From Octopus vulgaris (Eukaryota), in the NCBI GenBank assembly GCA_951406725.2, contig OX597819.1, positions 119,908,001 to 119,972,000 on the forward strand: a stretch of DNA of 64,000 nucleotides, written 5' to 3'. Below, piece after piece: positions 19,505-40,208 of the stretch. The position numbers were made by a program, and so were the translations under genes. The notes under the pieces were generated by a model. That model saw only the letters and a list, made by a program, of their open reading frames with translations. It made no database searches and was not told the origin of the DNA. Each line of letters opens with the position of its first letter. Positions within the stretch are counted from its first letter, which is position 1.

Positions 19505-20061
19505 AATTAATCAATATAGGGTGGCAAAAAAAATTTTGTAGAATTCTTTTGCCACCAGCGGCCTAGTGGGAAAAAATTAAATAGTCATAAACCATTTTTA
19601 AGTTCAACATCAACAATCAAGGAACGGCCATAATAGGCCATTCACCCACTAGAAATAACAGCCAAAAGCTTTAACCGCAAAATAACGTTAATTCCGTAAA
19701 CCAGGAGAAAATTGAAAAACATTTACCCTGTAATTTCTTAGACGATGCACCGTTTCATCTTCTGTTTAATGGAAAACTAACCTGATTAAATTAAATCAAG
19801 CCAATCTACCATAGGCCCTTAGATTCATCAGTAAGAAATAGCCAAAACCGGAACAGATATTTTTCACGAGGCATTCTCATTGCTACCTCGTCAATATCTG
19901 ACCTAAAATTTTCAAATCGTCGCACTCGCTAAGAAATTACAGGGTAAATGTTTTTCAATTTTCTCCTGGTTTACGGAATTAACGTTATTTTGCGGTTAAA
20001 GCTTTTGGCTGTTATTTCTAGTGGGTGAATGGCCTATTATGGCCGTTCCTTGATTATTGAT
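19505..20061 (-). mobile_element. Retrozyme-like non-coding element with ~130 bp inverted arm, in (TA)n
   Basis: ~19610-19741 is the reverse complement of 19929-20060; hammerhead at 19733-19839; TA tracts on both sides. Confidence 0.75.
19733..19839 (-). ncRNA. Type I hammerhead ribozyme with large stem II insertion
   Basis: Minus strand: ATTTCTTA-CTGATGA-ATCT[~60 nt]AGAT-GAAA-CGGTGCATCG-TC^TAAGAAAT; 8 bp stem I, canonical core, GUC site. Confidence 0.8.
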
Positions 20062-20080
20062 ATATATATATATATATATA

Positions 20081-22003
20081 TAATAGAAATATTAAAATTA
20101 CTAAGTTTCTCTAAAAGAGAACAACGGCAGCGTTCCCGGAAAATAATAGTTATCGCCATACTAATATGGCATTCTTATAAAAATAAGAATAAAGCTGTCC
20201 GCTTATTAGCTCCATGAGGCCATCGCCTTAAGTTAGCTATTTGATACACAAACTGTATCCATATAACCTTTGAACAAGGGAGGTCAGTCGCTCCACACTA
20301 CTTGGCCGGCAGCTACAGACGCGTTTCGGGGTATTGCCCCTTTTCAATGCAGCGTAGCCAGACCAGTAGGTGTCGCTTCTGACAATCTCTGTTCAAAGGT
20401 TTTATTTACCTAGCTTCGGTGGGATACATCCACTTGTTTTCAATAATAGAAATATTAAAATTACTAAGTTTCTCTAAAAGAGAACAACGGCAGCGTTCCC
20501 GGAAAATAATAGTTATCGCCATACTAATATGGCATTCTTATAAAAATAAGAATAAAGCTGTCCGCTTATTAGCTCCATGAGGCCATCGCCTTAAGTTAGC
20601 TATTTGATACACAAACTGTATCCATATAACCTTTGAACAAGGGAGGTCAGTCGCTCCACACTACTTGGCCGGCAGCTACAGACGCGTTTCGGGGTATTGC
20701 CCCTTTTCAATGCAGCGTAGCCAGACCAGTAGGTGTCGCTTCTGACAATCTCTGTTCAAAGGTTTTATTTACCTAGCTTCGGTGGGATACATCCACTTGT
20801 TTTCAATAATAGAAATATTAAAATTACTAAGTTTCTCTAAAAGAGAACAACGGCAGCGTTCCCGGAAAATAATAGTTATCGCCATACTAATATGGCATTC
20901 TTATAAAAATAAGAATACAGCTGTCCGCTTATTAGCTCCATGAGGCCATCGCCTTAAGTTAGCTATTTGATACACAAACTGTATCCATATAACCTTTGAA
21001 CAAGGGAGGTCAGTCGCTCCACACTACTTGGCCGGCAGCTACAGACGCGTTTCGGGGTATTGCCCCTTTTCAATGCAGCGTAGCCAGACCAGTAGATGTC
21101 GCTTCTGACAATCTCTGTTCAAAGGTTTTATTTACCTAGCTTCGGTGGGATACATCCACTTGTTTTCAATAATAGAAATATTAAAATTACTAAGTTTCTC
21201 TAAAAGAGAACAACGGCAGCGCTCCCGGAAAATAATAGTTATCGCCATACTAATATGGCATTCTTATAAAAATAAGAATAAAGCTGTCCGCTTATTAGCT
21301 CCATGAGGCCATCGCCTTAAGTTAGCTATTTGATACACAAACTGTATCCATATAACCTTTGAACATATAACCGAAGCTAGGTAAATAAAACCTTTGAACA
21401 GAGATTGTCAGAAGCGACACCTACTGGTCTGGCTACGCTGCATTGAAAAGGGGCAATACTCCGAAACGCGTCTGTAGCTGCCGGCCAAGTAGTGTGGAGC
21501 GACTGACCTCCCTTGTTCAAAGGTTATATGGATACAGTTTGTGTATCAAATAGCTAACTTAAGGCGATGGCCTCATGGAGCTAATAAGCGGACAGCTTTA
21601 TTCTTATTTTTATAAGAATGCCATATTAGTATGGCGATAACTATTATTTTCCGGGAACGCTGCCGTTGTTCTCTTTTAGAGAAACTTAGTAATTTTAATA
21701 TTTCTATTATTGAAAACAAGTGGATGTATCCCACCGAAGCTAGGTAAATAAAACCTTTGAACAGAGATTGTCAGAAGCGACACCTACTGGTCTGGCTACG
21801 CTGCATTGAAAAGGGCAATACCCCGAAACGCGTCTGTAGCTGCCGGCCAAGTAGTGTGGAGCGACTGACTCCTTGTTCAAAGGTTATATGGATACAGTTT
21901 GTGTATCAAATAGCTAACTTAAGGCGATGGCCTCATGGAGCTAATAAGCGGACAGCTTTATTCTTATTTTTATAAGAATGCCATATTATATGGCGATAAT
22001 ATT
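20081..22003. mobile_element. Retrozyme-like array: ~3.5 direct copies of a 363 bp unit, then ~1.75 inverted copies, in (TA)n
   Basis: Unit starts at 20081, 20444, 20807, 21170; inversion junction ~21366-21371; one hammerhead per unit; no ORF. Confidence 0.88.
20312..20353 (-). ncRNA. Type I hammerhead ribozyme, U3:A8 core variant (also 20675-20716 and 21038-21079 on -, 21437-21478 and 21800-21840 on +)
   Basis: GCTGCA-TTGAAAA-GGGG caata CCCC-GAAA-CGCG-TC^TGTAGC; palindromic stem III ACGCGT; stem I extends further. Confidence 0.82.
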
Positions 22004-37390: not shown

Positions 37391-38178
37391 CTAAATAATT
37401 AAGGGTTTAGCAACGATTTGCTTCACCACACACCGAATTTAGAAATAGCAGTCAAAGAGTTTTGGCTATTCTTTCTACTTAAAAGGGAGATCCCAGTAAA
37501 ACCACACCACCTAAAAGGCAAACAACGCAGGCAAAAGAGAAAGAAATGACGACAATCATTCTATATTAAGTCACCTACGGACGTACGTTTCGGAATTAAG
37601 TCATAGGAAGGCATAAAAATTAAATAATTATGTCTTACCCAACTATCTTCCTCTTCAGCGTAGGACTCTTCAATTATAAATAATTGCGTCTCAATTATTA
37701 ATAATTGTGTATTAAATTTGAAGGCACTAGAAGACATCACCTCAACTCATGGTATCAGAGCGAGCGTAAGCCATTACCAGTACCACCAAATTCAAAGGGT
37801 GAATGAAAGTATGTCACCATCCCCCCTCCGCCAGCGTGCTGCCAAAAATAAGATGCTACGGTTTTTTACTGGGATGAAATATAATTATCAATAATAATAT
37901 AGGGTGAAATTAATTAATTTGGAATAATCATTAATTTCACCAAGTAGATTTCGGCATGTAAAAGCCCCATTCAAGGAAGGTTTAAGTAATACTAAGTAAT
38001 TAAGGGTTTAGCAACGATTTGCCTCACCACACACCGAATTTAGAAATAGCAGCCAAAGAGTTTTGGCTATTCTTTCTACTTAAAAGGGAGATCCCAGTAA
38101 AACCACAGCACTTAAAAGGCAAACAACGCAGGCAAAAGAGAAAGGAATGACGACAATCATTCTATATTAAGTCACCTA
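37391..38178 (-). mobile_element. Retrozyme-like element: 601 bp unit plus ~187 bp partial repeat, in (TA)n
   Basis: 37391-37577 repeated at 37992-38178; hammerhead at 37574-37664; TA tracts on both sides. Confidence 0.82.
37574..37664 (-). ncRNA. Type I hammerhead ribozyme with extended stem II
   Basis: CCTACG-CTGAAGA-GGAA[~52 nt]TTCC-GAAA-CGTACG-TC^CGTAGG; palindromic ACGTACGT. Confidence 0.85.
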
Positions 38179-38830
38179 TATATATATATATATATATATA
38201 TATATATATATATATATATATATATATATATATATATATATATATATAAGCCTTTCTACCACTTCTACACATTACTTTCCTTGGATAATGGAAATGTAAC
38301 TATAACATTTTTATATATTTTTATTTCTTCGTTCTTTCCCTTATTTCCCTCTATATGGCGAATGGAAGATAGAAGATGGAATATACGAGAATATATTAAT
38401 CCCGACAATTGTTTCGACACATCTAACATCGATACCTCACGGGTGGGATACTCAAAAACTGGTTCAGGAGCATCCGGTGGTGTAGATGTATCTCATCGGG
38501 TGGTAAATAGACACAAGTGGTTAAAATAACAGTTCCCCAATGTAACTTCTTTTGTAGAAGAAAAGTAGCCAGTGGGAAGAAATATATTTCGTGTATATAG
38601 ATAGACAGATAGATAGATAGATAGATAGATAGATAGATAGATAGATAGATAGATAGATAGATAGATAGATAGATAGATAGATAGATAGATAGATAGATAG
38701 ATAGATAGATAGATAGATAGATAGATAGATAGATAGATAGATAGATAGATAGATAGATAGATAGATAAATAGACAGATATATAAACAGATATATAGAAAG
38801 ATAAGTCGGTAGATTGATAAATATATATAT

Positions 38831-40208
38831 ATATATAGATATAAGAAAAGGGACAGGTTGCTTGACCGCATACTGAAAAATAGAAATAGCAGTCAAGAAT
38901 GCTTATTTCTATCAAAGTTGGATTCTGGCATGACAAACCCTGTAATTCACATATACAAAACAGAAGGAATAGATAACGAAAACGAAGTCTGGCGGTTATC
39001 TGTGAACATCATGTTTCTGGATTATAAACATATTGAATATATATTTCATATATATATTTGATATATATTTCATATACATTGCATATATATTTCACATCCT
39101 TCTTCAGCTATTGCTTTCCATTGAAAAAGATTTATCATAGATTTATCAAATGCTACGTACTCAAACCTTCTGAGACATCAAAATATTTGAAGAAGTGAGC
39201 AAAAGCTAAACCTACATAGACGTTTGAATTCGTAAATCTTCCTCCAAAATTTTGCCATGCGCACTACAAAATAGTTCCATAAGATTGGGAACTATTAGTT
39301 GTCATAATGGAGTGAAAAATCCAAATAGTAATATAATAATAAGAGTAAATAATTTCTATAAAGGCTTTTAAAAAAAACCCAATTATTTAAATAATTGGGT
39401 TTTTTTTAAAAGCCTTTATAGAAATTATTTACTCTTATTATTATATTACTATTTGGATTTTTCACTCCATTATGACAACCCAATAGTTCCCAATCTTATG
39501 GAACTATTTTTGTAGTGCGCATGGCAAAATTTTGGAGGGAAGATTTACGAATTCAAACGTCTATGTAGGTTTAGCTTTTGCTCACTTTCTTCAAATATTT
39601 TGATGTCGCATGGTCAGAAGGTTTGAGGTACGTAGCATTTGATAAATCTATGATAAATCTTTTTCAATGGAAAGCTGTGCTGAAGAAGGATGTGAAATAT
39701 ATATGCAATGTATATGAAATATATATCAAATATATATATGAAATATATATTCAATATGTTTATAATCCAGAAACATGATGTTCACAGATAACCGCCAGAC
39801 TTCGTTTTCGTTATCTATTCCTTCTGTTTTGTATATGTGAATTACAGGGTTTGTCGTGCCCGGAGTCCAACTTTGATAGAAATAAGCATTCTTGACTGCT
39901 ATTTCTATTTTTTCGGTATGCGGTCAAGCAACCTGTTTGCCTGTCCCTTTTTCTTATATACAATATATATACTGAACTTTACAGAAGTTCCTGCCGGTAA
40001 TCGGCTATATTTACATACCGAATTCTACCAGTAAATAATTGGGGTTTTTTTTAAAGCCTTTATAGAAATTATTTACTCTTAGTATTATATTACTATTTGG
40101 ATTTTTCACTCCATTATGACAACCCAATAGTTCCCAATCTTATGGAACTATTTTTGTAGTGCGCATGGCAAAATTTTGGAGGGAAGATTTACGAATTCAA
40201 ACGTCTAT
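38831..40208. mobile_element. Retrozyme-like element: spacerless ~560 bp-arm palindrome plus 644 bp tandem unit
   Basis: Palindrome axis at 39388/39389; unit restarts at 40033; hammerhead at 39675-39787; TA/GATA flanks. Confidence 0.75.
39675..39787 (+). ncRNA. Type I hammerhead-like ribozyme with AT-rich stem II insertion and GUU site
   Basis: CTGTG-CTGAAGA-aGGAT[~70 nt]ATCCa-GAAA-CATGATG-TT^CACAG; damaged mirror copy at ~39000-39110. Confidence 0.62.

Follow-up and report, generated by a model that had tools for sequence, protein, structure and literature searches.

A conserved 16-mer and folded 3′ module in hammerhead retrozymes of Octopus vulgaris: a possible start signal for a Penelope-like reverse transcriptase

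In the 3′ tails shared by SINEs and LINEs, unrelated non-autonomous elements keep a short sequence-plus-stem signal for the reverse transcriptase (RT) of their helper; such shared tails are mentioned in PMC4758252. Closer to the elements described here are the non-LTR retrozymes of animals (PMC7229834; bioRxiv 10.64898/2026.07.22.740005), with which they have in common non-coding, AT-rich tandem units carrying one type I hammerhead each, strong self-pairing, and an occurrence as monomers to multimers beside Penelope-like elements (PLEs). The pLTR and ‘tail’ of PLEs, as set out in PMC11167929, PMC8557442 and PMC2377424, likewise have two alternative 3′ ends downstream of a hammerhead, and go together with inverted 5′-truncated copies, partial tandems and (TA)n targets; the RT initiates at two internal sites, one on either side of the tail, and depends on RNA lying 3′ of them (PMC11167929). 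Lastly, PLEs of the Hydra clade, recognised by their RWK/RWL and DKT motifs (PMC8557442 section 11), share with our elements, in this same genome, a 50-60-nt stem II, a palindromic stem III, long tails and (TA)n targets.

The window is the whole stretch of DNA that was analysed, 64,000 nucleotides of O. vulgaris contig OX597819.1 (positions 119,908,001 to 119,972,000, forward strand), and all coordinates refer to it. The initial annotation had listed a 16-mer, UUGRCUGNUAUUUCYA, at seven sites in four hammerhead elements; all seven are exact matches:

19650-19665 (−): 16-mer of family F1, in cis with the hammerhead, 75 nt after cleavage
20005-20020 (+): 16-mer of the inverted F1 copy
25241-25256 (+): 16-mer of F2
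37440-37455 (−): 16-mer of the downstream F3 unit, 124 nt past cleavage, with an end 49 nt later
38041-38056 (−): 16-mer of the upstream F3 unit, followed by the full tail
38881-38896 (−): 16-mer of the inverted F4 copy
39892-39907 (+): 16-mer of F4

For the 19.5-kb element the assignment needs to be swapped: both sites match, but the copy in cis is 19650-19665(−), since 20005-20020(+) belongs to the inverted copy. With up to 2 mismatches allowed, the window holds 10 matches against 0.91 expected (10 being reached in 0/100 shuffles); exact matches genome-wide number 36,768, against 23 for the reversed control.

A descriptor for type I hammerheads, drawn up independently of the motif, yielded five candidates in the window, four of them those annotated with the 16-mer 75, 96, 124 and 109 nt downstream; predicted cleavage falls after 19741(−), 25144(+), 37580(−) and 39782(+), the fifth candidate (at 13808) having a weak stem I and no motif:

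19733-19839 (−): type I hammerhead of F1, 68-nt stem II, cleavage after 19741 (descriptor)
25089-25152 (+): hammerhead of F2, cleavage after 25144, with an extra A (descriptor)
37574-37664 (−): type I hammerhead of F3, 60-nt stem II, palindromic stem III, cleavage after 37580 (descriptor, Rfam)
39675-39787 (+): hammerhead of F4, 83-nt stem II, cleavage after 39782 (descriptor)

The extra A lies in the GAAA of the 25.1-kb hammerhead and is specific to this copy, its relatives being canonical. An Rfam scan of the whole window gave no hammerhead, just microsatellite-driven miRNA-type noise; Hammerhead_1 run against 37574-37664(−) scores 22.2 bits with an E-value of 0.011, short of the gathering score of 34.

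The copies that carry these features are as follows:

19506-19929 (−): F1 copy reaching the second end, with hammerhead, motif and complete tail
19930-20059 (+): inverted F1 copy, ending at the first end in (TA)n
25087-25297 (+): F2 copy with hammerhead, motif, hairpin B and first end
37391-38178 (−): F3 partial tandem, 601-nt monomer
38831-39389 (−): inverted F4 copy with motif and broken hammerhead stem I, stopping at the first end
39390-40207 (+): F4 partial tandem, ~640-nt monomer, with hammerhead, motif and the 3′ strand of helix C

The inverted F1 copy starts at the first base past the hammerhead cleavage site, and the F3 tandem 2 nt past a cleavage site, the latter spanning one whole unit before it stops at the first end; in 5/29 same-family truncations, the 5′ end falls 0 to +6 from cleavage (hand count). 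Inverted truncated copies (head-to-head), partial tandems, an optional tail and microsatellite (TA)n targets together make up the insertion anatomy of PLEs. As in non-LTR retrozymes, there is a type I hammerhead per unit (in 8/9 motif-bearing units of array L066) and the units are tandemly repeated, with measured monomers of 490-640 nt (F1 ~493 elsewhere in the genome, e.g. array L066; F3 585-601; F4 616-640; F8 ~561); for F2, direct tandems were not seen in 10 loci. The units are AT-rich and strongly self-paired (z -8.7 and -5.4), and have neither an RT plus GIY-YIG ORF nor protein-coding capacity by tblastn: no PLE protein match falls inside a unit, such matches being neighbouring insertions. 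The F3 unit is covered by contigs assembled from runs that we guess to be RNA, these contigs being uninformative on strand, ends and circularity. We judge it somewhat probable that a PLE protein moves the elements, which would be non-coding, non-autonomous hammerhead retrozymes.

The four elements had been described as dissimilar, which requires some amendment: around the motif, the family at 37 kb is related to that at 39 kb (82.5% across 40 nt), the remaining pairs being at shuffled background outside it. Since sequence comparison shows F3-F8 and F10 to be plainly related, there are ~4 independent lineages rather than ten. The long upstream flank of F8 was considered as an autonomous 3′ UTR and rejected, the family being a ~561-nt tandem.

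Roughly half of the genomic matches belong to hammerhead repeats without coding capacity (non-LTR retrozymes of ~10 families, with Penelope-type insertions), the other half mostly in an old ~240-nt repeat without hammerhead, hereafter class B. The non-random placement that was claimed holds: in the first 100 genomic matches (9 of them from one array), an intact hammerhead lies 74-129 nt upstream in 21, downstream in 0 and on the opposite strand in 0; and, genome-wide, (TA)5 lies 30-60 nt downstream of 3,712/18,406 motifs, against 540/18,362 for the same distance upstream. Across groups, motif identity is 81-100% while the flanks are at background, a conservation that is partly ascertainment because the families were found through the motif (in a wider scan, only 9/40 distinct hammerheads carry it). 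As annotated, the 16-mer is missing from the 362- and 363-bp families, which carry U3-A8-type hammerheads; a second class with another motif exists.

On the ribozyme strand, a folded module of ~160 nt has the 16-mer as its invariant 5′ anchor. It comprises hairpin A (whose 3′ arm contains the 16-mer), a long-range helix C, hairpin B and a tail hairpin D; hairpins B and D are each closed by CC(C/U)U. Module parts located in the window are:

19563-19570 (−): helix C 3′ strand of F1, pairing with the motif's final bases and the five that follow (folds)
19520-19556 (−): tail hairpin D of F1 (GGUG...CACC-CU), with the second insertion end ~12 nt later
37950-37959 (−): helix C 3′ strand of F3 (folds, RNAalifold)
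37901-37941 (−): tail hairpin D of F3 (folds)
40013-40022 (+): helix C 3′ strand of F4 (fold)

Helix C, which shows compensatory and G-U changes, arises unprompted in folds of F3, F1 and F2 (for the whole F1 monomer it is present in the centroid but not in the MFE structure), with F1 and F2 forming it from different letters. RNAalifold, given 12 copies of six related families, returns the helix with 3 double changes and with G-U changes able to pair on the ribozyme strand only. Its 8 compensated cells are matched in 2/500 shuffles and it is 88% paired, versus 30-50% in slid controls; for pairs showing a double change, 23/500 shuffles attain the observed number, and the covariation consists of few independent events in related sequences. 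On a mixed alignment of all families RNAalifold finds no structure, as the columns of F1 and F2 fail to align; a module model trained on F3-F10 detects both F1 (40 bits, 19511-19665) and F2 (31 bits). The 16-mer is itself base-paired in most families, with partners that differ among them; such pairing is odd for a single-stranded RNA site, and counts against reading the module as an RT signal.

Copies end at two places after the motif, at 37-57 nt and at 125-177 nt: in a table of 58 rows, which includes some overlapping loci, 37 fall at the first, 20 at the second and 1 between. The annotation had placed one insertion end ~40-50 nt downstream in every case; the first end does recur, but a second is found ~100 nt further on, and the hairpin-CC(C/U)U signature tracks the end better. 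Ends lie 7-15 nt past CC(C/U)U in 30/37 cases at the first end and 13/20 at the second, and the motif-to-end distance shifts with the length of hairpin B. As ends follow CC(C/U)U hairpins, the hairpins, and not the 16-mer, set the end; the interpretation given in the annotation is supported in part. Two copy ends also fit with the two internal initiation sites and ‘tail’ of Penelope-like RTs.

A scheme that would accommodate these observations runs as follows. Tandem arrays would be transcribed and then cut by the hammerhead; the RT-endonuclease of a helper would bind the ~160-nt 3′ module and nick (TA)n DNA, with cDNA beginning inside the RNA, ~10 nt 3′ of a CC(C/U)U-closed hairpin. A start at hairpin B would give the first end, and one at hairpin D the second, the ‘tail’ of PLEs; occasionally, cDNA would run off at the ribozyme-cut 5′ end. 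The 16-mer may be the sequence-specific part of the module, with the hairpins measuring out the start site, and on this model would most likely act as a protein anchor. On balance, we lean towards a helper Penelope-like protein that uses the module for recognition and priming. Rather more tentatively, it might exemplify a start code of Penelope-like RTs, made up of a sequence anchor, a tail-folding helix across the first start site, and initiation ~10 nt past a CC(C/U)U hairpin, with retrozyme classes defined by their anchor (the 16-mer or CCU(A/G)GGGCUAAA), each with its own helper.

The annotation had looked to the 3′ regions of PLEs to identify that helper; the 16-mer was found in none of the terminal repeats of the ~18 autonomous families inspected (~10 Neptune-like and 8 Hydra-like, grouped by eye), which counts against the RT-module reading. 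Queries were a GIY-YIG family scan, an old Neptune-like C-terminus, a Hydra-like RT piece and a cephalopod Hydra-like protein, and the searches cover the best ~150 candidates, with Neptune-like and Hydra-like families sampled. These families have just shorter look-alikes, 10-25 nt from their ends, and hits of the module model in autonomous loci are separate retrozyme fragments or have E>0.8. A 2-mismatch look-alike upstream of the hammerhead in a 727-aa family is within chance; motif copies near PLE ORFs were rejected as PLE parts, being separate insertions in shared (TA)n tracts. In one Hydra-like autonomous family the tail ends with a similar CGGUAU..GGU..ACCC..AAUU signature (by eye); the MFE fold of that tail does not display the proposed hairpin.

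Class B is represented in the window by one feature:

23126-23364 (−): decayed class B copy, with the motif at 23168-23183 (2 mismatches)

That ~half of matches sit in this hammerhead-less repeat counts against the RT-module reading. Its ends lie 10 nt past CCCU in hammerhead-family polarity; as they obey the retrozyme rule, class B looks related to the retrozymes and not like an unrelated SINE. It has hammerheads in 0/53 copies, and neither hammerhead, twister nor pistol could be fitted by eye to its far end.

Among the rival explanations, we consider it unlikely that the 16-mer is a DNA promoter element for a host factor, each unit driving the next from near the first end while the hairpins alone serve the RT. 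The 16-mer has what we take to be a resemblance to MEF2 and NFI half-sites. Its primary sequence is fixed as its RNA pairing partner varies, the ~18 autonomous families yielded no helper carrying it, and it persists in an old, differently built repeat, as expected of a slowly evolving host factor; the Penelope promoter, moreover, sits in the pseudo-LTR (PMC2377424). Were it true, one host-factor site would stand on thousands of dispersed copies. Against this, F10 has a compensatory change within the motif's hairpin, indicating that motif pairing is selected, and the 16-mer (≤3 mismatches) is found within 400 nt upstream of U2 snRNA in 0/16 loci examined of 48; these share a different element near -57, and an snRNA-type element (PSE, 50-65 nt upstream) was rejected on the same count.

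Quite improbable, in our estimate, is inheritance or swapping of the motif without a specific partner, the class B 3′ end having been captured by, or being co-ancestral with, the retrozymes and kept by structure or recombination. Class B holds its half of the matches and is alike to F1, F2 and F9 over ~15-30 nt either side of the motif (by eye), and kinship of F3-F8 and F10 reduces the lineages to be explained; but among class B, F1, F2, F9 and the F3 group, the flanks are no more identical than shuffled sequences, against 81-100% for the motif, and the motif is decayed in 3/3 class B copies picked without it, so there is no passive protection. We give least credence to an HDV-like ribozyme encoded on the opposite strand, in which the motif would supply the P4 loop and the catalytic strand J4/2; class B would then be a SINE carrying a ribozyme at its 5′ end, and the retrozymes would be ambisense RNAs or derive from such. 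Reversed, the motif in class B does offer, at one fixed end, a 6-bp stem capped by GAAA, a linker C-A-A and a closing helix of 7 bp, and (CAA)n stands at the other end. Yet P1 and P1.1 are incomplete, and P2, P3, P4 and C-A-A are plausible for class B alone; class B loci have no HDV-type Rfam match; the stem keeps just 2-5/6 pairs in hammerhead families; and both the G-U changes and the polarity of the CCCU-linked class B end favour the hammerhead strand.

The preferred reading, a priming module for a Penelope-like helper, bears on two open questions, namely what enzyme mobilises the retrozymes of animals and by what means a Penelope-like RT chooses its internal start site. Non-coding parasites that have diverged except where a helper needs them would amount to a natural alignment of the start signal, and helix C offers a reason for the in vitro need of RNA 3′ of that site. 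Compared with animal non-LTR retrozymes, the Octopus elements have monomers of 490-640 nt and a stem II of 27-83 nt, together with the 16-mer, a covarying cross-family 3′ module and two mapped ends; no such shared end signal is described in the excerpts of PMC7229834 and bioRxiv 10.64898/2026.07.22.740005, and the sister pLTR of Xenopus retrozyme families was not found here. With respect to the PLE pLTR and ‘tail’, the retrozymes are without ORF, their tail is ~90-105 nt as against 30-40 nt, and their first end lies 130-195 nt past cleavage as against ~35-100 nt in this genome's autonomous families. The ~8 Hydra-clade families differ in having neither the 16-mer nor a module-model score, while the tail end of one resembles the retrozyme end signature. 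Set beside the shared tails of SINEs and LINEs, finally, the RT would here start inside the RNA, and the putative helper would be PLE-like.

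Within the window, all seven sites claimed for the 16-mer motif (UUGRCUGNUAUUUCYA) match its pattern and, allowing up to two mismatches, we see 10 matches where 0.91 are expected. A type I hammerhead descriptor, composed independently of the motif, picks out five candidates; four are those of the initial annotation and reproduce its distances of 75, 96, 124 and 109 nt from cleavage site to downstream motif, whilst the fifth is a weak hammerhead that lacks the motif. Rfam matches just one of the window's ribozymes (at 37.6 kb), below its gathering score, probably because stems II of 27–83 nt lie beyond the models' reach. 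The 19.5-kb element does carry both motif and hammerhead, but the copy in cis is that on the minus strand; the plus-strand copy belongs to an inverted piece starting at base 1 past the cleavage site.

Across the 2.8-Gb genome the motif matches exactly 36,768 times (versus 23 for its reversed control), and its placement relative to hammerheads and to (TA)5 is non-random. All of the first 100 matches listed were retrieved, nine from a single array; an automatic rule assigns 47 to hammerhead repeats (class A) and 53 to an old repeat (class B) or others, with four corrections by eye giving 49 and 51. Within this set, an intact hammerhead lies 74–129 nt upstream of 21 class A matches and of no class B match, with none downstream or on the opposite strand for any of the 100. 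Most of the ribozyme-less class A copies are 5′-truncated. With counts restricted to the strand that records each motif a single time, (TA)5 is found genome-wide 30–60 nt after the motif in 3,712 of 18,406 cases, as against 540 of 18,362 at that distance before it. The pattern at hammerhead repeats is real.

Our data demonstrate two insertion ends. Of the class A rows, 58 reach a microsatellite within 200 nt (a few being overlapping loci or an AT run internal to family F4, that at ~39 kb); it starts 37–57 nt after the motif in 37, 125–177 nt after it in 20, and in between in one. A first end close to the ~40–50 nt originally described is seen in 37 of 58, but there is a second end and the motif distance is variable, shifting with the hairpin (B) that precedes the first end. 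Ends lie 7–15 nt past a hairpin-closing CC(C/U)U in 30/37 first and 13/20 second cases. On the 5′ side, 29 same-family truncations were counted by hand, and five of them have their breakpoint at 0 to +6 nt relative to cleavage, which suggests that some insertions derive from ribozyme-cut templates.

The data also show a folded module on the ribozyme strand. The motif does sit in a hairpin (A), occupying its 3′ arm, but the 5′ arm differs between families. A long-range helix (C) starts just past the motif and pairs with a stretch 68–103 nt downstream; in seven of 15 tail-bearing copies no more than 10 of 200 shuffles score as well. One copy with a deletion gives no signal. Helix C forms unprompted in single-sequence folds of F3, F1 and F2 (families at ~37, ~19.5 and ~25 kb), being made of different letters in F1 and F2. 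RNAalifold, given 12 copies of F3–F7 and F10, recovers helix C and the inner hairpin B; the same alignment holds three double changes, as well as G-U changes that pair solely on the ribozyme strand. Cells of the 27-pair structure are 88% paired, versus 30–50% when slid; eight are compensated (reached by 2/500 shuffles), but the count of compensated pairs is just five (23/500), and because the sequences are related this covariation counts as moderate evidence. Trained on F3–F7 and F10, a model scores F1 at 40 bits and F2 at 31 bits; an alignment of all families mixed gives no consensus structure.

Class A comprises about ten non-coding families whose polarity and anatomy are directly apparent: head-to-head inverted copies and partial tandems, inserted at (TA)n, with tandem monomers of ~493 nt (F1, one array), 585–601 (F3), 616–640 (F4) and ~561 (F8). 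Compared with shuffles, the F3 and F1 monomers are much more stably folded (z of -8.7 and -5.4 respectively). We are highly confident that these are retrozymes of Penelope-like element (PLE) type; PMC7229834 and bioRxiv 10.64898/2026.07.22.740005 propose retrozymes as non-autonomous PLEs. F3–F8 and F10 are mutually related around the motif; in both flanks, the identity of F1, F2, F9 and class B to that group and among themselves does not rise above the shuffled background, indicating about four independent groups.

Other ribozyme repeats lack the 16-mer. A wider scan of 40 distinct hammerheads gives nine with the motif (three from motif-selected loci), two with a second motif, CCU(A/G)GGGCUAAA, 98–100 nt past cleavage, and 29 with neither. 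Two families in the window had been taken to mark a second class:

52127–52970: 362-bp family, a second retrozyme-like class, with a minus-strand U3-A8 hammerhead and CCU(A/G)GGGCUAAA ~98 nt past cleavage
20080–22000: 363-bp tandem with inverted copies; U3-A8-type hammerhead, core UUGAAAA, palindromic stem III

Both lack the 16-mer and share the U3-A8 hammerhead, a variant described in PMC4209133; of the two, only the 362-bp family has the second motif, the 363-bp tandem having neither. The 362-bp family ends ~10 nt past CCCCU. The second motif also occurs in at least three further small families.

Class B is an old repeat of ~240 nt, without a hammerhead, often with both ends intact, in some copies tandem, and with the 16-mer close to one end:

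23126–23364: one decayed class B copy

Class B is abundant and carries the motif. Its end falls 10 nt past CCCU in the same polarity as class A, so it is more likely kin to class A than an unrelated SINE fragment. The opposite end of the repeat reads as CCU(A/G)GGGCUAAA on the other strand and adjoins (CAA)n (window copy and L171–L203). The motif is decayed in all three class B copies picked without using it. Satellites of 55 and 107 bp derive from the class B motif region (L042, L043, L053), which is also embedded in another repeat, longer and younger than class B (L057, L122, L125).

On balance we lean towards the folded module being the recognition signal of a helper, for which the 16-mer would act as the anchor and the hairpins as rulers. 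That the motif is instead a promoter element seems unlikely, and it is not the U2 element; 48 U2 loci were found, and none of the 16 retrieved carries it. (These U2 snRNA genes have about three promoter types and, L267 excepted, a common element starting AUCAGU near -57; L258–L273.) Between groups with background-level flanks the motif is 81–100% identical, a conservation that is partly ascertainment; its passive inheritance we consider improbable. More doubtful still is an antisense remnant of an HDV-like ribozyme: read in reverse, the class B end resembles part of one, but neither P1 nor P1.1 is complete and there is no Rfam match.

The published work covered, subscription journals aside, yielded no cephalopod retrozymes and no 3′ motif common to retrozyme families; the portion of main text seen from a recent octopus repeat annotation (PMC13282606) lacks the word ‘ribozyme’. 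These families may be present as unclassified repeats in the consensus libraries of PMC8557442 and PMC13282606 or in bioRxiv supplements.

Intact PLEs are numerous in this genome. They are Neptune-like (Pfam RT plus C-terminal GIY-YIG; clade as defined in PMC8557442) or Hydra-like (RWK/RWL and DKT motifs; PMC8557442 section 11), and fragments lie in the window:

25331–26155: Neptune-like PLE fragment directly after the F2 copy; inverted terminal repeat, ORF end and its own tail
58100–58405: Hydra-like endonuclease fragment
63243–63993: Neptune-like RT fragment, at the window end

The helper expected to carry the motif did not emerge: with 3′ regions inspected or loci scanned, the families' own terminal repeats lacked the 16-mer in all ~18 Neptune-like or Hydra-like cases (best-scoring candidates, grouped by eye). 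At least eight Hydra-clade families occur, several with full-length units in tandem, intact 720–980-aa ORFs and hammerheads with a long stem II (L234, L239–L257); one has an F5 retrozyme fragment antisense within its 3′ UTR, in at least three copies (L241, L242, L246). A young Neptune-like family (L101–L112) has a 330–480-aa ORF, with no convincing Pfam match, upstream of and overlapping its 781-aa RT-endonuclease ORF.

Neptune-like ends show shorter look-alikes of the motif, 15–25 nt from the end, and a long stem II is common to the retrozymes and the Hydra-like families; the tail end of one Hydra-like family resembles the retrozyme signature by eye, although its MFE fold lacks that hairpin. 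According to PMC11167929, a Poseidon PLE protein nicks AT-rich DNA and starts cDNA at two internal, tail-flanking sites, with RNA past both sites being required.
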